In this document: in pieces, positions 5,111 to 64,000 of the stretch
How positions within the stretch are numbered: position 1 is the first letter of the stretch
How the letters are laid out: every line of letters starts with the position of its first letter
Source of the DNA: Escherichia coli
Lineage (GTDB): Bacteria; Pseudomonadota; Gammaproteobacteria; Enterobacterales; Enterobacteriaceae
Length of the DNA: 64,000 bases
Reading direction: 5' to 3' (one strand)
Assembly (NCBI RefSeq): GCF_009931435.1
Contig: NZ_CP043414.1
Notes under the pieces: model-generated
Databases searched by the model: none
Seen by the model: only the letters and a program-made list of their open reading frames with translations
Told to the model about the DNA's origin: nothing
Program-made: the position numbers and the translations under genes

Positions 5111-6361
5111 TTAACTGTCAGACGCTGTCACCTGCGGCGGCGTCTGGCGAAAACGACGCAACTCCACCAGTACCAGCAACAACAACACGCCGATAATCAA
5201 CAAACCAAAACCACTCGCGCTTGCGGAGGCCACCGGCGTCATCATCGCTCCCAGACCGCCCAACAGCGCTGCGCCTATAGCATCGCCCGTCACGTTTTGT
5301 GCCGTCCACAAACCGTTAATCCGCCCTAACATCGCTTCCGGGGTTTGCGTTTGCAGCATTGTGTATTGCAGCAACGAACTAACCGCGCTCAACCAGCCGA
5401 ACAGCGCCAGACAAACCACGCCTAAAATCCACATCGGCATCAGGCCAAACAAACCAATGGCGAGGAACGATCCCAGAGTGGAGAGCAGCATCAATAACCC
5501 TGGTCGCGCACTATGTGCCAGCTTCCCGCTGGTTAACGCGCCAATAGCTGCACCGAGCGGGATCGCCGCATAGAGAAAACCAATCTGTGCCGCCGACATC
5601 TGCCAGTTGTCAGCCAGCGCCGGATACAGTACCCGTACCGCGCTCGCCATCGTCAATAATCCCCCCAGCAGTGCAATCCCTCCCACCAGCGGGCTGGCGA
5701 GCAGAAAACGAAATCCTGCCAGTAATGATTTCAACGGATGCTCACGCGGTTGCGGTGGCGGAGGTAGCGCCGGAAGGCTTAACAACGGTAGCAAGGTAAT
5801 AAACGTGCCCGCCGCCGCCAGCCCGTAGTTCCAGGCTACGCCGCCAGTCGCCAGCAGTAAGCCGCCAATCATGGGCGAAATTACCGATCCCAGCCGCACG
5901 GTCAACATGGTGATTGCCCCGGCCTGCATTAAATTTTCACGCCCAACTAATGCCGGAGTCGCCGCCAGAAGCGCCGTAACGCCAAGTGACGCGAAAAAGC
6001 CATCCCATAATCCGAGTAAATAGATTGCCAGCAAAGACGGCTCCGGCAGCAACGCGTTCAGGCACAGACCAATGAAGCCAATGCCACAGGTGCCGCGCGC
6101 CAGCAAAATCACTTTTTTGCGCTCATAGCGATCCGCCAGCACACCGCCGACCATCAAGCCGACAAACATCGCCCCGCCGGTCAGCGTCACCGAAAGCCCC
6201 ACCTGCCAGGTAGAATGCGTCATCATCTGGATCTGCACTGGCACCGCGACGCCGAGCAAACCCAGAGAAACAATAGAGATAAAACGAGCGAGGAATACTG
6301 CGCGAAACGCCGGGTGCGTTTTCAACAGGCTGAGGTTAAGCAGCCAGGATTGTTTATTCAT
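5111..6361 (-). CDS. entS: Enterobactin exporter EntS (MFS transporter)
   Basis: 416-aa hydrophobic multi-pass [30 protein letters not shown]...; locus context. Confidence 0.92.
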
Positions 6362-46094: not shown

Positions 46095-46679
46095 TTACTC
46101 CCTGACAGGGTTCGTAGGCCACTCAATATCAGGTGCAGTTGATGTATCAACACGGTTCAGCAACACCCGATATTTTTTCCAGGCTTCCAGCAATGAGGTT
46201 TCTTCCTCCGTTGCGATTTCCAGATCTACAGCATCCTGAAGTGGCGCAATATGCTCACTGGCTACCTGCATCAGGCTGTTTTTTGTTTCTTCCGCCTCCC
46301 GAATCCGGAACAGTTTTTCTGCTTCTGCATCTTTCACCCAGGCTGTACCGTTCCACTTCTGAAACTCCCCTTCCGGCGATAACCAGGTAACATTTTCCGG
46401 TAACGGACCGAGTTCAGAAATAAATAACGCGTCCCCTGACGCTACGTCATAAACCGTTTTACCCCGATGATCTTCAACGAGATGCCACGATGACTCATCA
46501 CTGTTGAAAACAGCCACGAAGCCAGCTGGAATATCTGGCGGTGCAATGTCGGTACTGTTTGCTGGCAGACCTGTATGAGGCGGAATATATGCGTCACCTT
46601 CACCAATAAATTCATTAGTTCCGGCCAGCAGATTATAAATTGTTATGGTCCGTGGTTGTTCACTCATTCTGAATGCCAT
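46095..46679 (-). CDS. tfa: Tail fibre assembly protein Tfa
   Basis: 194-aa [56 protein letters not shown]...; start overlaps the stf stop. Confidence 0.9.
46119..46260. repeat. Direct repeat copy B of the tfa 3'-end segment (inside the intact tfa)
   Basis: Partner of 45059-45200. Confidence 0.7.
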
Positions 46680-49600
46680 TATGCAAGCCTCACAATATAG
46701 TTAAATGCGATGTTTTTGACGGTGTTTTCCGCGTTACCAGCAGCGTTAACGGTGATGGTGTGTCCATGTGAGCCAATCGCAACCGAGTGCGTATGAGCAC
46801 CAATACCGACAGTATGTGCGTGTGCACCTGCGCTTGCTGCAGTGCCGGACAGTGAGTGGGTATGAGCACCATCTGATGATGTCTTCCCTGCATTACGAGT
46901 CTGGCCACTACCGCTTGTTGTGCTCATAATCCCCGCGCTTGGATTTGAAATCGCGGTATAACCATTAGGGAAAATGCTCGTGTTCGTGCCACCAAATGCA
47001 CCGGAACTCTTGTGTTGGTGCGCACCGGCACTATTTGCGGTCCCGCTAATACTATGGGTATGCGCCCCGGTGTTATTCGTGGATTTGGTTCCGTAATCAA
47101 ACGACGATGTGGTTTTCGTCCCCAAATCCGTACTGGATGCGCTGGCGCTGTGGGTATGCGATTTAATGCCGTCCTGTTCCTGAGACAATACGGCCCGACC
47201 ACTGGCAGGTTTGCCCTTAATCGTCCAGCCACGCATATCAGGGATCACGCCTGACGGATAAGCCGCTGCAAGTTTCGGGTAGGCAGATTTGTCAAAAGCC
47301 TGCCCCTGCATCAGGGCATAGCCAGACGGAACGGTATCTGATGGCCACGGGATTGGTGCGCCGACTGGGTAGCTTTCTGGTGGAAGATTTTTCGAGGTAT
47401 AAACTTCTGCCCAGTCTTCCTCAAAACCATAGCCATCTCTTGAGGAACGGTAGAACAGACCTCCATTTCTGTAATGCGCCTTCATCTGCAGGGTCCGGCA
47501 ACTTCCGACTCCGGTATAGAAGTTAACCAGAATATAGCTGTCGCCAGAGCGGGTGACATTGTAAGCGCCTGATTCGGCATTCCAGGGAACGCCACCATCC
47601 GCATCGGCATATGTATCCGTTGCCCTTCTGGCAAAAGCAGCCACATGCGCGGCGGTTAAAGTAATATCTTTGGAACCATCAAACTCAACACCAGAAACCA
47701 GTCTTGGCGTTTGCAGCTTTGTTGCTGTTAATGCATTACCGTTCAGACTTGCGGACAGTTTGGTTCCAATAATCAGTTCGCCGGTTGCGTTATCAATAGC
47801 AAACGGTCTTAATGTATTCCAGCCACCATAAACATCACCTTGATTGGTAAGCAGCAGGTAAGTTTTAGCGCCATCATTACGCCATAATGCACCATACTCC
47901 CCACCTATCATTCGAATCTGATTACCACCACGCGCTACAATTTCGTCTGTGGCAAAAAGTTTTTTGCACGACAAGTTATCGTTAACGATTAACGAATGAG
48001 ACTCATAAAAACCACGCCCACTCTTAAAATCAAGGATAACGTCCGCCGCGATACATTCAGTCGCCGGATTTGTTGCCCCAAACTTATAGGTCGTATCATT
48101 AACAACGAGATCAGCACCAGGTGCGGATATTGACAGGCCATCTTCGATAAACGCAAAAACAGGGAAAGCAGCGCCATCAACATAGAACACAGAGCGCAAA
48201 TCATCGCCCTTATTACTCATCATTATTGAGTGGATGGCTCGTTCATTGTTTTGATATTGCCAGAACATTCCATAAGCATAACGCCCCCTGTCAGTCCAGC
48301 CACCAGGCATAACAAATCCGTTAAACTCGCAGTTATTCATCGGATCGCCTGCGGTTCGCGTTGCCGTGGTGATAATGACCCTTGATGCCAGTTCGCTTAC
48401 TGAGCCAGCAGAACGCATAACAACAACAGGGTAATATTTTCCAGATGTTGCACCTGCAGGAGCGTTAACCCGCACATAACGCATACCACGCTTATCAGCA
48501 AAGTCTGTTTTACTGACCGCGTTAATGTTGTTCAGGAAGCGTCCCTTATCGGGTATATCAGCGCCGTTCTGGTCTTTCTGCAGACGTTTCTCTGCATTGT
48601 CATAGGCTGATTTTACTGCCTTTGGCGTTGCCGCCAGCGTTTCAGACGTACTGTTGGTCGCACTGCTGAGCTGTACTACCCCCTTTTTCGTCGTGCTCGC
48701 ATCCTCAAGCGCCACGGCGGATGCAATATCCTCTGCCCGTTTTGCCGCTGTCTCGGCGCGCGTTGCCGCGGATTCCGCCGTACTTTTGCTCTGAGCTGCC
48801 GCCGTCGCACTGCCAGCTGCCTCTGTCGCCTTCGTGGATGCCGTCGTGGCGCTGCTCTTCGCTGCTGACGCTTGTCTGGTCGCCTCATCTTTTGAAGCAG
48901 ACGCAGATGATGCCGATGACGCCGCCGAACTGGCTGACGATGCGGCAGCCGTTTTTGAGGATTCTGCGCTGGTTTCCGACGCTTTCGCGTTCGTTTCGGA
49001 TGTCTTCGCTGCGGAAGCAGAACTCGCTGCTGCGCTGGCCTGTTCAGTGGCTTCGCCAGCCTTCGTTGTGGCTGTTGAAGCAGACGATGCGGCACTTTCT
49101 GCCGACTTTCCGGCAGCGGTGGCACTGGCTGAGGCCTGCCCGGCACTTGTTGACGCGGCGCTGGCAGATGATGCAGCCGCTGTTTTTGAGTCTGCTGCTG
49201 CGGAGGCACTCTGTTCCGCTGCCGTCTCAGAAGACTTAGCGTTCGTCTCGGACGTTTTTGCCGCCTTCGCGGAATTTCCTGCCGCCGTTGCCGAGGAAGC
49301 TGCGCTACTGGCGCTCGAGGATGCGTTCGTTTCTGATGATTTCGCTGCCTCTTTTGAGGCCGCCGCATCCCTGGCTGAGGTGGCAGCTTCTGACGCTTTC
49401 CTGGTCGCGGTGGATGCAGAAGTGGCTGCTGATTGTTGTGACGCTGCGGCATTCGTTTCTGACGTTTTCGCCGCACCGGCACTGGTGGCCGCCGCGCTTT
49501 TTGAGGACTCTGCAGCGGCAGCACTTTTTTCCGCTTCAGTGGCCTTTGCTGATGCCGTTCCTGCGCTGGAAGATGCTGACTGAGCCGACGACGCGGCCTG

Positions 49601-50086
49601 TCCGGCTGACGTGCTGGCTGCGCGTGCTGAGCCTGCAGCATCAGTCGCATGGGTTGCCGCCTCACTGGCAGATGTGCTGGCATCGCCGGCTGACTTCTTC
49701 GCGGCTGCCGTGTTTTGTGCCACCGCGGACGCGTTACGCGCCACCTCTTCCACCATCAGTTCAAAACGGCGCAGAGCCTCCGGACGGGCATCATCCTCCG
49801 TCATGGCACCGAGAAAATCATTCAGCGTACCGGGTCGGGAATCTTCATACACGGTGATGGTCCCGGCATGTGACGGCGGGAATCCTTCCACCAACAGAAT
49901 AACGCTGTACTGACCGTACTCAACGTCCATGCTGTAACGCCCGGCTTCATCCGGATTTTCTGAGGCCAGCGTGTTCACCACCACCGCGGTGCTGTTACGT
50001 TTTGCTTTCAGCTGGATTGTGCAGTTCTGTACCGGTTTTCCTGTGCCGTCTTTCAGTACACCTGAAATCTTTACTGCCATATTCAC
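46679..50086 (-). CDS. stf: Side tail fibre protein Stf (lambda Stf / StfR-like)
   Basis: 1135-aa [40 protein letters not shown]...; long Ala/Ser/Thr-rich repetitive shaft; C-terminal His-rich GAHTHS-type motifs and ...[13 protein letters not shown]. Confidence 0.9.
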
Positions 50087-50096
50087 CCCACAAAAA

Positions 50097-50118
50097 AGCC
50101 CGCCTGAACAGGCGGGCT
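50097..50118 (-). terminator. Intrinsic terminator hairpin between lom and stf
   Basis: agcccgcct / aggcgggct stem with a 4-nt loop, preceded on the plus strand by aaaaaa (a U-tract on the minus-strand transcript). Confidence 0.6.
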
Positions 50119-50144: not shown

Positions 50145-50744
50145 TCAGAACTTATAACCGACACCCACGATGAAACCGTCAGTGCGCCAGTCGCCACTGC
50201 CGGAGCCTTCATAAGCAATATCAATGGCCACGGATTCGGTCGGGTTAAACTACACGCCAGCTCCCCACGCCAGAGACGTGTTGCTGTGGCGACCGTCATC
50301 ACTTCCGGTCAGCACGTCGTGCGTTTTCCCCTTGTTGTCAGTTACGCGGAGATAATCCCCGGAGAAAGTCGACACACGGCTGTAAGCCATACCCGCCATC
50401 GCATACGCGCTGAACCATTCATTCACGCGCACAGACGGCCCCACCATCACGCTGAACCAGCGGTTACGCACGGAATCTTCATGCCAGCGGGTATTGCTGT
50501 AACGGGTAAGCTGGCGATTCTTGTCTCCTGCATAGCTGAATGACGTCACCAGCCCCAGTGTGTCCGTAAACTCATAACGGTATTTCACGTTAATCCCGTT
50601 AAGATCATCGCTGCCGGGAACGTTCGTCGAGGCATGAAGATACCCCGCGCTCAGCGTGGACTGATGTTCAGATGCCCATGCAGGCGCACCGGATACGGTC
50701 AGACAAATGGCTGCGGACAAAATGGCGGCATAAAGTTTACGCAT
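50145..50744 (-). pseudogene. lom: Lom-like outer membrane protein gene interrupted by an in-frame amber codon
   Basis: 164-aa ORF MRKLYAAILSAAICLTVSGAPAWASEHQSTLSAGY... stops at TAG (50252-50250); the same frame continues FNPTESVAIDIAYEGSGSGDWRTDGFIVGVGYKF to a TGA at 50147-50145, with Q expected at the TAG position. Confidence 0.75.
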
Positions 50745-50813
50745 AATTACCTCTCGCTTTTCTGCAATAAAAAAGGCACCATTTCTGGTGCCCTTATATG
50801 GGTTATAACAATT

Positions 50814-53800
50814 TCAACGAATACTGATGCCGGAAGCGGCTTTTTTGGTCACAATCACCGTACAGTCGGTGATATTACCTGCCCACTGATTGCCTTTATG
50901 GAAAACCTTAAACTCCAGAGTGACGCTTCCCCTGCCACTCGGCATATCAATAACCGCACTGTAGCTACCGGGAATGGCCCCTTTAGTTTCTCTGGATGCG
51001 ATTAATACACCGTTTTTGCGAACTTCAAAACCATAACCCGTGTATCTTGTACCTCCCGGGTTATTACCACTTCCCGGATCGCTATACGCTATTCCGTTAA
51101 AGATAATGGGCGGAATAATGATTTGACGGTCAAAGTTATGATCATCGCTGATGGTGACTGTAACCGTCCCGTTTGGTGTTTCCGTGTTACCCCACGTACC
51201 AGCCTGTTTCGGAAATGATTTGGATACAGCTTTAACGAAGTCACCTCTGACCTGAGTCGCCTCCAGCATGCCCTTAATTGTACAGTTTTCATTTACCGTG
51301 ACATTGTTGAGCGTCCCGGCGTTCGCATTCACACTGCCACTGATATCCGCATTTTTAGCGGTCAGCTTTCCGTCTGATGTCAGGGAAAATACCGGTGGAT
51401 TTCCACCGCTGGTAATGGTGGGGGCCGTCAGGCGCTTCAGGAACACGTCGTTCATGAATATCTGGTTGCCCTGCGCCACAAACATCGGCGTTTCATTCCC
51501 GTTTGCCGGGTCAATAAACGCGATACGATTGGCGGCAACCAGAAACTGGCTCAGCTTGCCTTCCTCCGTGTCCTCCATGCTGAGGCCAATACCCGCGACA
51601 TAATGTTTGCCGTCTTTGGTCTGCTCAATTTTGACGCCCCACATCGCATTCCATTTATCGTTAGCGTCCTTCCACTCTTTCGAAAACTCATCCAGTCTGC
51701 TGGCGTTATCCTCCGTCAGATCAACTTTTTCCAGCAGCTCTTTACCGAGATGGGATTCGGTTATCTTGCCTTTGAAAAAATCCAGGTAACCTTCCGCATC
51801 ATCGCTCGCCCGACCAACAGCCTCCACGAATGCCGATTTGCCAACGGTGTTCACACTGCGAACGTAAAAATAATAATCATGGCCCGGTTTGATATTGATA
51901 CTGGCGGCTATCCAGTACAGTGCCGTACCAAGATAACGCGCGCTGGTTTCAACCTGCCTGATATCCGCAATCCGTTTTTCCGAGAACCAGAACTCAAACT
52001 GTACCGTCGGGTCATAAACCGCAAGATGCGGCGTGGCGGTTATCTGAAAATAGCCCGGCGTCAGCTCAATCCGCGACGGCGCTGCCGGTGCGGCAATCCG
52101 GAACGATACCGACGCCGGATCGCCCTGCTGTCCCCACGCATTTACCGCCCGGACTGTCAGCGTGTACCGTCCCAGCGCCAGTTGCGTGAAGCGGTATGTG
52201 GTTTCCGTCGTCCGGGCCGTGCTGACCAGCCGCTCACTGCCGTCATCCGCTGTTACGGTCAGACGGAGCAGGAAGCTCACGCCCTTCACCACCTTCGGCG
52301 TGTCCCAGCGCGCCAGCACCTGATATTCCCCGCTGTCTGCGGTGACTTCGGCAGTCAGGTGCTGCACCGCTGGCGGCGTGACACCATTCACCGTGCCGCT
52401 CTGGTCGCCGTCAAAGTGCGCCCCGTTATCCACGATGGCTTCTTTTTCCGGTACATGCTGCACGGCGGTGATGGCATACGTGCCGTCGTCGTTCTCACGG
52501 ATACTCACGCAGCGGAACAGGCGCTGGCGCAGCGTCGGCAGCTTCAGCCCCCACACGCTGTATTCAGCAACGCCGTCAGGAACACGGCTCACTTTCACCT
52601 TCACGCCGTCGGTGACGGACTGAACCTCCACGCTGACCGGATTGCCACTTCCGTCAACCAGGCTTATCAGCGTGGTACCGGAGGATGGCAGCGTGATTTC
52701 ACGGTCGAGCGTCAGCGTCCGGGTCTGGCTGTTTACCGCCAGCACGCGCCCGCCGGTGCTGATACCGGCATAGTCATCATCACAGATTTCAATGACATCG
52801 CCCGGCACATGGCGAAGCCCTTCTGCGCCCACGCTGAAGTCCACGGTCTGCGTTTCCAGCAGTTCTGTTTTAATCAGCCATAGCCCGGCGCGATGTGCCT
52901 GCCCCCGGCTGGTACAGCCAAAGGCATCCATCTTCGTGACGTTACGACCGTAACGGGCAATGGCCTGCGTGTCCTCCACAAGCTCTGTCGCCGTCTCCCA
53001 GCCGTTATTCGGGTCAATCCAGTTCACCTCAACGGCATTATGGCGGTCCTTCAGGGCGCTGAAGCTGTAGCGGAACGGCGCGCCATCATCCGGCATCACC
53101 ACATTACTGCGGTTATAGGTCCACACCTTATCCGATGGTCGGTCCTGCACGAACGTCAGCGTCTGCCCGTTCCATACCGGCATACAGCGCATCGCCGAGC
53201 AGAAATCACTGAGCACATCCCACGCCTTGCGCTGTGTGGTCAGGTACGCATTACAGGTGATGCGCGGCTCCGTGCCGCCAAAGCCGTCCGGCACTGACTG
53301 GTCGCAGTACTGGCCGATGACATACAGCGCCCATTTATCCACATCCGCCGCACCAAGACGTTTCCCCATGCCGTAGCGCGGATGGGTCAGCATATCCCAC
53401 AGACACCAGGCCATGTTGTTGCTGTATGCCGGTTTAAACGTTCCGTCCCAGATACCGCTGTATTGCCGCGTCTGCGGGTTATAGTTCGACGGCACCTGCA
53501 GAATGCGCCCGCGCAGATGATAATTACGGCTCACCTGCTGGCTGCCGAACTGCTCCGAATCCACCTGCACGCCGACCAGTGCCGTGTTCGGGTAGCCCTG
53601 TTTCACATCGATGATTTCGGTGTATGACGACCAGAGCGTTTTGTTCTGCAGCTGGTCTGTGGTGCTGTCCGGCGTCATCCTGCGCATCCGGATATTGAAC
53701 GGGCGCGGCGGCAGGTTACCCACCACCACCGAGGCCAGATACTGCGAGGTGGTTTTGCCCTTAATGGTGATGTCTTTTTCCGTCACCCAGCCACCATTAC

Positions 53801-54227
53801 GCTGGATCTGAACCAGCAGGCGGACTTCCGACGGATTCCTGTCCCCCTTTGAGGTGGTTTCCACCAGTGCCTGCACGCCGAAGGTAAAACGCAGTCGGTC
53901 AATGTTTGCCGACGTGATGGTCCGGGTGATCGGCGTGTCGTATTTCACTTCCGTACCCAGCACCGTCTCGGAGCCGGAGGATTCAAATCCCTCCGGCGGT
54001 GTCTGCTCCTGCTCACCGGCCCGGAACACCACCGTGACGCCGGAGATATTGGTATTCCCCTCACTGTCCAGCACTGGCGTACTGTTCAGCAGCACGCTTT
54101 TTAATCCATCCACCGGACCTTCAACCGGCCCTTCGCTGATGGCATCGATCACACTCAGCAACTGCGTGGACTTCAGGTTGTCCTTCGCTTCGCGCGGAGT
54201 ATGCCCCTTACTGCTGCCTTTACCCAT
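50814..54227 (-). CDS. J: Tail tip / host specificity protein J
   Basis: 1137-aa [57 protein letters not shown]..., lambda J-like over most of its length with a diverged C-terminus. Confidence 0.93.
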
Positions 54228-62545: not shown

Positions 62546-62586
62546 GGACTCCTCCACAGAGAGAAAATGGCCCCGAAGGGCCATGA

Positions 62587-63612
62587 TTACGCCAGTTGTA
62601 CGGACACGAACGCATCAGGATCAGCCAGCAGCATCAGCGGTGCTGACTGAATCATGGTGAACTCACGCGCCGGATCGCCGGTGGTCACCCAGTTTTTCGG
62701 GTAGCGGGCAGAGGCGTTAATACCTTCGCGCTGTGCGTCCGCATCCTGAATGCAGCCATAGGTGCGCAGACCGCGTGCCTGAGTGTTCCCCAGCACCATC
62801 GTGTTGTCCGGCAGGAAGTTCTTTTTGACGTCGTTTTCCACGTACTGTCCGGAATACACGACGATCGCCGTATCGCCATACATCCCCTTATAGGACACCG
62901 CTTCGCCCAGATCTTTTACCGCTGTCTCCAGCTCGGAATGAGAGCCGCGACGGGTATCCAGCTTCTCCTTGACGGCTTTGAAGGAACGGAACAGCGCCCA
63001 GCCTTTCGGATCAAACACGATGATATTCACCACACCGCTGGCGTTCAGCGCGTAGGCTTCGATATCGTCGGTCGGGTCATACGTGGACTTGTCACGCTTG
63101 CTCCACTCCGTACCGCCGGACTGCGTGATGTTGTTCGCCACACTGCGGCCCATATCCACTTCAACCGGATCGAAGGCTTCACCGGTCATGGTATATTTGC
63201 CCTTAAGCACGGCAGAAACGGCCTGCATCTCTTCGACCTGAGCAATGGCCAGCTCTTCGTCTCGCATGTTCTGCAGAATGATGCGACGGCGGCGGTAAGC
63301 CGGGTCCGCCAGATTCTGTGGATCTTCATCCGGCAGGCGACGCAGGGTCATCTGCGGATTCACCTCATGCTTCGGCTTGACATATCCCGGTGTAAATTCA
63401 GAGGTGGAGCCGCCACGGGAGCGGATAACCTCACCGGAAACAATCGGCGAAACGTACAGCGCCATGTTTACCAGTCCCGGAATTTGTGAGAGATAGACTT
63501 TCTCCGTGGTGAAGGGATAGCTCTCACGGAAAAAGAGACGCAGAAACAGCGGATCAAACTTAAATTTCTTCTCATTTGCCGCCAGCAGCTGGGCGGTTGT
63601 GTACATCGACAT
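62587..63612 (-). CDS. E: Major capsid protein E
   Basis: 341-aa product from the ATG at 63612 (MSMYTTAQLLAANEKKFKFDPLFLRLFFRESYPFTTEKVYL...). Confidence 0.93.
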   Translation of the reverse strand: MSMYTTAQLLAANEKKFKFDPLFLRLFFRESYPFTTEKVYLSQIPGLVNMALYVSPIVSGEVIRSRGGSTSEFTPGYVKPKHEVNPQMTLRRLPDEDPQNLADPAYRRRRIILQNMRDEELAIAQVEEMQAVSAVLKGKYTMTGEAFDPVEVDMGRSVANNITQSGGTEWSKRDKSTYDPTDDIEAYALNASGVVNIIVFDPKGWALFRSFKAVKEKLDTRRGSHSELETAVKDLGEAVSYKGMYGDTAIVVYSGQYVENDVKKNFLPDNTMVLGNTQARGLRTYGCIQDADAQREGINASARYPKNWVTTGDPAREFTMIQSAPLMLLADPDAFVSVQLA

Positions 63613-63667
63613 AAAAAAATCCCGTAAAAAAAGCCGCACAGGCGGCCTTTAGTGATGAAGGGTAAGG

Positions 63668-64000
63668 TTAAACGATGCTGATTGCCGTTCCGGCAAACGC
63701 GGTCCGTTTTTTCGTCTCGTCGCTGGCAGCCTCCGGCCAGAGCACATCCTCATAACGGAACGTGCCGGACTTGTAGAACGTCAGCGTGGTGCTGGTCTGG
63801 TCAGCAGCAACCGCCAGAATGCCAACGGCAGCACCGTCGGTGGTGCCATCCCACACAACCAGCTTACGGGTGGAGGTGTCCAGCATCAGCGGGGTCATTG
63901 CAGGCGCTTTCGCACTCAATCCGCCGGGCGCGGTTGCCGTATGTGCCGGGTCACTGTTGCCCAGCGGCTGGTAATGGGTAAAGGTTTCTTTGCTCGTCAT
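63668..64000 (-). CDS. D: Head decoration protein D
   Basis: 110-aa [55 protein letters not shown]...; the ATG is the last three bases of the window. Confidence 0.92.

Follow-up and report, generated by a model that had tools for sequence, protein, structure and literature searches.

The D and E genes of a lambda-type late operon are separated by a short spacer whose transcript can form a G-C hairpin followed immediately by a run of U residues. The question raised by this locus is whether the hairpin is a chance palindrome or a working element and, if it works, whether it acts on transcription, on the stability of the message or on the translation of E. We addressed this question in a window of 64,000 nucleotides of Escherichia coli DNA (the whole stretch that was analysed) and by comparison with related phages. 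The first-pass annotation of this DNA had described the hairpin as a weak terminator-like structure inside the late operon, which could attenuate readthrough into E or simply stabilise the D message. The features of the locus are collected in Table 1.

Table 1. Positions of the D–E hairpin, of its flanking genes and of other features in the window
Feature	Position	Strand	Description	Basis
Gene D	63668..64000	minus	head decoration protein, 110 aa; stop TAA 63670-63668; ATG is the window's last codon	ORF list
D–E intergenic spacer	63613..63667	minus	55 nt	read from sequence
Extended stem	63629..63650	minus	9 bp, AAAGGCCGC/GCGGCUUUU	MFE structures
Core hairpin	63633..63646	minus	GCCGC-CUGU-GCGGC, five G-C pairs, 4-nt loop; arms GCCGC 63646-63642 and GCGGC 63637-63633, loop CUGU 63641-63638	sequence and folding
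U-tract	63626..63632	minus	seven uninterrupted U, no gap after stem	sequence
Shine-Dalgarno of E	63620..63623	minus	GGGA, between the two U runs; nearly invariant in relatives	
Second U7 run	63613..63619	minus	spacer between the E Shine-Dalgarno and start, directly before the E ATG; mostly unpaired in ensemble	
Gene E	62587..63612	minus	major capsid protein, 341 aa; start ATG 63612-63610	
Second intercistronic hairpin	62567-62584	minus	AUGGCCC-UUCG-GGGCCAU, UUCG tetraloop, -12.3 kcal/mol; 2 nt after E stop	
J-like tail-tip gene	50814-54227			
Strict terminator-like motif	50774-50793	minus	just after the J-like gene, before lom	
lom-like ORF	50250-50744	minus	164 aa as listed	
Strict terminator-like motif	50098-50117	minus	between the lom-like and side-tail-fibre ORFs	
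Side-tail-fibre-like ORF	46679-50086	minus	uninterrupted, 1,135 aa; very long Ala/Ser/Thr-rich repetitive region	

The hairpin and its flanking genes

The gene order D-E-FI... agrees with that of the lambda late operon. The last base of the window (64000) opens the D start codon; the upstream late genes C/Nu3, B, W, A and Nu1 lie beyond it, as do cos, the lysis genes, Q and pR'/tR'. The DNA of gene D is 100% identical to that of several Lambda_ev phages, and its protein is 97.3% identical to lambda gpD. A 350-amino-acid version of E in the mechanical list of open reading frames was rejected as an artefact, as it opens at a GTG (63637-63639) inside the hairpin loop, while it is the ATG at 63612 that is conserved as the start. 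In the record of phage 434 the GGA equivalent to the GGGA of E is labelled as the capsid gene's ribosome binding site, and the stretch from Shine-Dalgarno to ATG is A/U-rich in relatives rather than U-specific (AAAAATCT in the N15 type, AATAATTT in Perceval).

Every detail given in the first-pass annotation for this structure was correct, namely the stem, the 4-nt loop, the seven U residues and the 55-nt spacer, and the positions that it named, 63626-63646, are exactly those of the core and U-tract together. It had overlooked the 9-bp extension of the stem, the second U7 run and the GGGA Shine-Dalgarno. The extension consists of one G.U and three A-U pairs, formed by an A-tract with the four U that open the tail. 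The predicted folding energy is -7.7 kcal/mol for the 5-bp core, -9.3 for a 6-bp form and -11.7/-11.8 for the 9-bp form; the 25-nt element, at -11.8 kcal/mol, has a z-score of -2.6 and is equalled by 2 of 200 shuffled sequences. Folding of the whole spacer (63613-63667), which had been proposed as a check, also predicts the hairpin, at -14.5 kcal/mol (z = -2.0), and in a 241-nt context the pair probabilities are 0.89-0.997 over all pairs and 0.987-0.997 for the core. The hairpin shares a G-C stem, a short loop and a U-rich tail with lambda tR2 and the trp attenuator, from which it differs in being weaker (-7.7 to -11.7 versus about -13.5 kcal/mol for the tR2 and trp attenuator hairpins folded in the same way) and in lying inside an operon rather than at its end. 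The word weak therefore suits the 5-bp core, but understates a 9-bp stem with a perfect U7. A 3-bp CCC/GGG helix (63659-63662 with 63621-63623, minus strand) is also predicted to enclose the hairpin and to pair the Shine-Dalgarno of E; as a prediction it is too short to be trusted, and N15-type spacers show no counterpart of the CCC upstream of their hairpin.

A strict scan of both strands of the 64-kb window, for a perfect stem with at least five G-C pairs and at least seven T in the next eight bases, returned only three sites, all of them intergenic in the late operon and one of them the D–E hairpin. As shuffled windows hold a mean of 0.15 such sites, the motif is real and not a chance match. 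A pattern-based scan for promoters and terminators did not list the D–E site, presumably because the stem runs into the U-tract and leaves too few T in the tail, and it placed no promoter-like site near the hairpin on either strand. Read as a bidirectional terminator the element is unconvincing, since on the plus strand CTTTAGTG comes after the reverse hairpin.

The two other strict sites bracket lom, at the end of the late operon. The lom-like open reading frame is shorter than lambda Lom, which is about 206 amino acids long, and this copy may be truncated or end differently. The side-tail-fibre-like frame is uninterrupted in the window, the corresponding gene of laboratory lambda being split by a frameshift. 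Nearer to the D–E spacer, a second intercistronic hairpin lies 2 nt past the stop codon of E, so that E has a hairpin on either side; UUUCUCUCUG and the FI Shine-Dalgarno GGAGGAG come after this second hairpin.

Several other identities were tried for the D–E element and rejected. No Rfam family reaches its gathering threshold: Leu_leader scores 20.3 bits against 50 and isrK 16.5 against 50, and both are chance alignments of the terminator parts of these families, ending exactly at the U-tract. An RNase III site requires about 20 bp or more of double-stranded RNA, and processing by this enzyme is ruled out by the length of the stem, 9 bp at most. PasB, an Hfq-bound prophage sRNA of EPEC, was considered following the description of the Pas sRNAs as 'embedded in structural operons'; its probe sequence is absent from the window and, by the coordinates of the original RIL-seq paper, it lies antisense between the tail genes I and J in E2348/69.

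Identity with lambda and conservation among lambda-type phages

Over the 701 bases around the hairpin, the window matches several Lambda_ev-type phages at 100% identity and lambda at 98.1%. The lambda D–E spacer (NC_001416 / J02459, about 6080-6134) has the same flanking genes, and its hairpin, both U7 runs and its Shine-Dalgarno are those of the window. Beginning 5 nt past the D stop and up to and including the E start, the two spacers agree at every base, and they differ by a single substitution (C for T) at the second base after the stop (alignment column 25); when lambda, 434 and HK629 are aligned, the differences in the spacer are likewise confined to the first few bases past the D stop. 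A 161-base stretch centred on the hairpin is present in 3,199 of 5,426 complete E. coli genomes, in up to five copies per genome. The comparison with lambda had been suggested in the first-pass annotation, which counted an identical lambda sequence of no known function as an objection to its own reading. The sequence is indeed identical across the hairpin; that it is functionless does not hold, as the comparative data described below show selection.

The lambda records NC_001416 and J02459 carry no annotated feature at the position of the hairpin. In phage 434 (OL657226, 6100-6120) and HK629 (NC_019711, 5911-5931) the identical 21 nt, again offset by 22 nt from the final base of the D stop, are annotated 'rho-independent terminator'. 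In N15 a stem-loop between genes 7 and 8, the homologues of D and E, is recorded as a 'putative rho-indep. transcription terminator' (AF064539 5980-6004), and the equivalent element in the HK225 record is likewise annotated as a rho-independent terminator. The N15 and HK225/phi80 elements share with that of the window the GCCGC/GCGGC core, the U7, the Shine-Dalgarno (ACGGGA/ATGGGA) and a 20-nt distance to the ATG; they differ in the loop (CUGC/UUGC), in an upstream spacer that is longer (67 nt) and of unrelated sequence, and in a stretch between Shine-Dalgarno and AUG that is A-rich, not U-rich. These GenBank labels (434, HK629, N15 and HK225) are predictions, not experiments. The D–E hairpin is thus an already known and ordinary element, an unchanged lambda spacer that the records of sister phages carry as a putative terminator.

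Conservation within the lambda clade is uninformative because the whole region is 97–100% identical there. We surveyed a wider sample, using as queries the proteins of lambda, N15, Gifsy-1, 783R5 and Aeromonas ARM81ld: 223 loci encoding D homologues, from annotated phages and IMG/VR, gave 73 distinct strings from D stop to E start, with homologues down to about 40% identity of the D protein. A terminator-like hairpin is present in 68 of the 73 distinct spacers, compared with 2.1% of dinucleotide-shuffled spacers. Of the five exceptions, two have a larger, imperfect hairpin in the same place and three belong to an Aeromonas clade. The latter, of the phiARM81ld type, is the most distant clade of the survey and the only one without an intergenic hairpin; in these loci (L010, L137-L142) the D homologue overlaps that of E (TAATG/TGATG), or a short spacer devoid of hairpins lies between the two.

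Across clades there are at least 10 different stem sequences, for example GCCGC/GCGGC, GCCGCC/GGCGGU, ACCGCC/GGCGGU, GCCGCG/CGCGGC, ACGGGUCGC/GCGGCCCGU, CAGGCCGC/GCGGCCUG and UCAGGCCAC/GUGGCCUGA. The hairpin lies 19–23 nt from the E ATG in phages of the lambda, N15 and 783R5 types and 25–32 nt from it in those of the phage 21 and Gifsy types, and the D stop precedes the hairpin by 3–33 nt across clades, with 3–4 nt in Gifsy-1-like relatives. The phage 21 and Gifsy-type clades have stronger stems (-15 to -20 kcal/mol) and interrupted U-tracts.

Variation was counted over the 21 distinct spacers of the lambda/N15 type; a MAFFT alignment across clades put the 3' arms out of register and was left out of the counting of pairs. 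The 10 columns of the G-C stem require a minimum of one change (a single variant) and the 7 columns of the U-tract none, only the length of the latter varying (6–8), compared with at least 9 changes in the 4 columns of the loop and at least 12 in the 11 columns of the upstream spacer. Under uniform change the split between stem and loop has a binomial probability of 9e-5. Pairing is kept in 98.9% of cells, the outer pairs alternating only between A-U and G-U, and compensatory double changes are lacking in the alignable lambda/N15 set. This pattern clearly points to purifying selection on the D–E hairpin, a conclusion that derives from an invariant stem and U-tract beside a variable loop and flank, from the conservation of position and from the replacement of stems between clades, and not from classical covariation.

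Possible termination and the alternatives

The element has the hallmarks of an intrinsic terminator: a G+C-rich stem-loop on the transcribed strand, and a U-tract of the usual length (about 7–9 nt) immediately 3' of the stem. The description of a terminator-like structure inside the late operon was in this respect borne out, in agreement with the annotation of 434, HK629, N15 and HK225. We infer, tentatively and at slightly less than an even chance, that it acts as a moderate intrinsic terminator on the late-operon strand, which would halt polymerase without Q modification, would be bypassed during lytic growth, and would persist as a hairpin in the mRNA. A polymerase that lacks Q modification and is not closely trailed by a ribosome would pause at the U7, the GCCGC/GCGGC hairpin would form in the exit channel and the transcript would be released; transcription not begun at pR' under Q control would in this way be kept out of E and the downstream genes. 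During lytic growth Q-modified polymerase would read through, so that the hairpin would not set the D:E ratio; the Q-lambda nozzle on the RNA-exit channel prevents the formation of terminator hairpins (PMC9388147). In the finished late mRNA the folded hairpin, its stem lengthened by pairing of the A-tract with the U-tract, could then block 3'-to-5' exonucleases.

Terminators within late operons are common in lambdoid phages, where 'their roles are not known', and one proposed role is to stop transcription that has not been antiterminated (PMC8022706). P22-like phages such as phage L likewise have predicted intrinsic terminators in an antiterminated late operon with a single promoter, next to the procapsid gene module (PMC8022706); their head genes and sequence are unrelated, and their terminator follows the coat-gene module whereas the D–E hairpin precedes the coat gene.

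Several points weigh against termination, besides the lack of compensatory double changes in the alignable clade. Firstly, the core hairpin is weak by prediction (-7.7 to -9.3 kcal/mol). Secondly, a barrier about 10 kb downstream of pR'/tR' would shield only E and later genes, a benefit that is not obvious. Thirdly, the conservation of the U-tract could equally reflect the translation-initiation region of E, because the distance of the hairpin is fixed relative to the E ATG (19–32 nt) and not to the D stop (3–33 nt). Finally, tR2 is 12–80% efficient at 17–18 nt from a stop codon and fully so only beyond about 27 nt (PMC4824070). The D–E hairpin starts 17 nt (extended stem) or 21 nt (core) past the D stop, so a ribosome at this stop can partly repress the terminator, and at the 3–4 nt spacing of the Gifsy-1-like relatives a ribosome on the stop codon would repress termination partly or fully (PMC4824070). 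In the literature we found no termination, 3'-end, reporter or decay data for the D–E hairpin, nor any assigned function that had been tested, and PMC5737525 holds no per-gene mRNA data.

The alternative that survives best is post-transcriptional, and we regard it as possible but rather unlikely: the hairpin would be an intercistronic stabiliser and processing boundary which, after endonucleolytic cuts in the 26-kb late mRNA, blocks 3'-to-5' exonucleases and prolongs the life of the D fragment. The UUCG hairpin that closely follows E would protect the E message in the same manner, giving long-lived messages for the two most-needed head proteins. The proposal of the first-pass annotation that the hairpin stabilises the D message is accordingly plausible. 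It agrees with the presence of hairpins immediately 3' of both D and E, with pair probabilities of at least 0.89 in a long context, and with the maintenance in relatives of the outer A-U/G-U pairs with the U-tract, which would stabilise the mature RNA. It also agrees with the stronger stems and interrupted U-tracts of the phage 21 and Gifsy types, some of them 3–4 nt past the stop, where co-transcriptional termination would be repressed, and the GC|UUU at the end of the stem would fit the loose cleavage preference of RNase E. Yet the U-tract is invariant in three clades, as is expected of a terminator, and a plain stabilising hairpin needs none. In addition, Sampson and colleagues are said to have attributed, in 1988, the ratios of the late proteins mainly to translation initiation, which counts against a role in stability.

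The same fixed distance to E that weakens the case for termination suggests a role in the initiation of E translation, in which the hairpin would keep the E ribosome-binding site from pairing with the D coding sequence, and U-rich single strands would recruit the 30S subunit via S1, allowing very high translation of E. The tight spacing between hairpin and ATG (19–23 nt in three clades, 25–32 nt in the others) beside a D-stop distance that varies from 3 to 33 nt, the U7-AC-GGGA-U7-AUG layout with its U runs predicted to be unpaired, and the A/U-richness of the stretch between Shine-Dalgarno and AUG in all relatives argue for it. However, the block from hairpin to ATG may merely be co-inherited with E, the predicted fold pairs the GGG of the Shine-Dalgarno with the upstream CCC, which would not help initiation, and insulation would not call for a G-C-rich stem with a T-run after it in every clade. 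Such a role is unlikely.

Less probable still is the first suggestion of the first-pass annotation, that the hairpin is a partial attenuator which lowers transcription of E and the downstream genes relative to D during lytic growth. The lambda capsid requires D and E in roughly equal amounts, with at least as many copies of E as of D, and an attenuator placed before E would be counter-intuitive. The shape of the element is that of a terminator, and partial termination is a suggested role for intra-operon terminators in P22-like phages (PMC8022706). However, a marked attenuation of E in lytic growth is unlikely because the late operon is transcribed by Q-modified polymerase, which resists terminator hairpins, its nozzle blocking them (PMC9388147), and a ribosome terminating on D 17–21 nt upstream would weaken termination further (PMC4824070).

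It is very improbable that the hairpin has no function of its own and is a chance palindrome carried along with the D–E module, as the uninformative near-identity of the lambda clade and the lack of compensatory changes in the alignable set would allow, but the frequency of hairpins in the surveyed spacers relative to shuffled ones, with stems that differ between clades, and the constancy of stem and U-tract beside a varying loop and upstream sequence contradict.

Significance for lambda-type head modules

A more ambitious reading, which we hold to be highly unlikely, is that the hairpin and U7 form a conserved functional 3' end which releases a discrete RNA by termination or processing, with a regulatory or expression role in lambda-type phages; the product could be part of the D 3'-UTR ending in a terminator tail of the Hfq type, or an E mRNA that is monocistronic and delimited by the two hairpins. 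If this were true, the fixed distance from hairpin to E would mark a unit in which processing and translation of the major capsid gene are combined.

For this window the element matters little; the wider interest of the D–E spacer lies in a terminator-type hairpin before the major capsid gene that is kept across lambda-like head modules, with stems that differ and a distance to E that is fixed. This observation bears on the question of why the antiterminated late operons of phages retain internal terminators.
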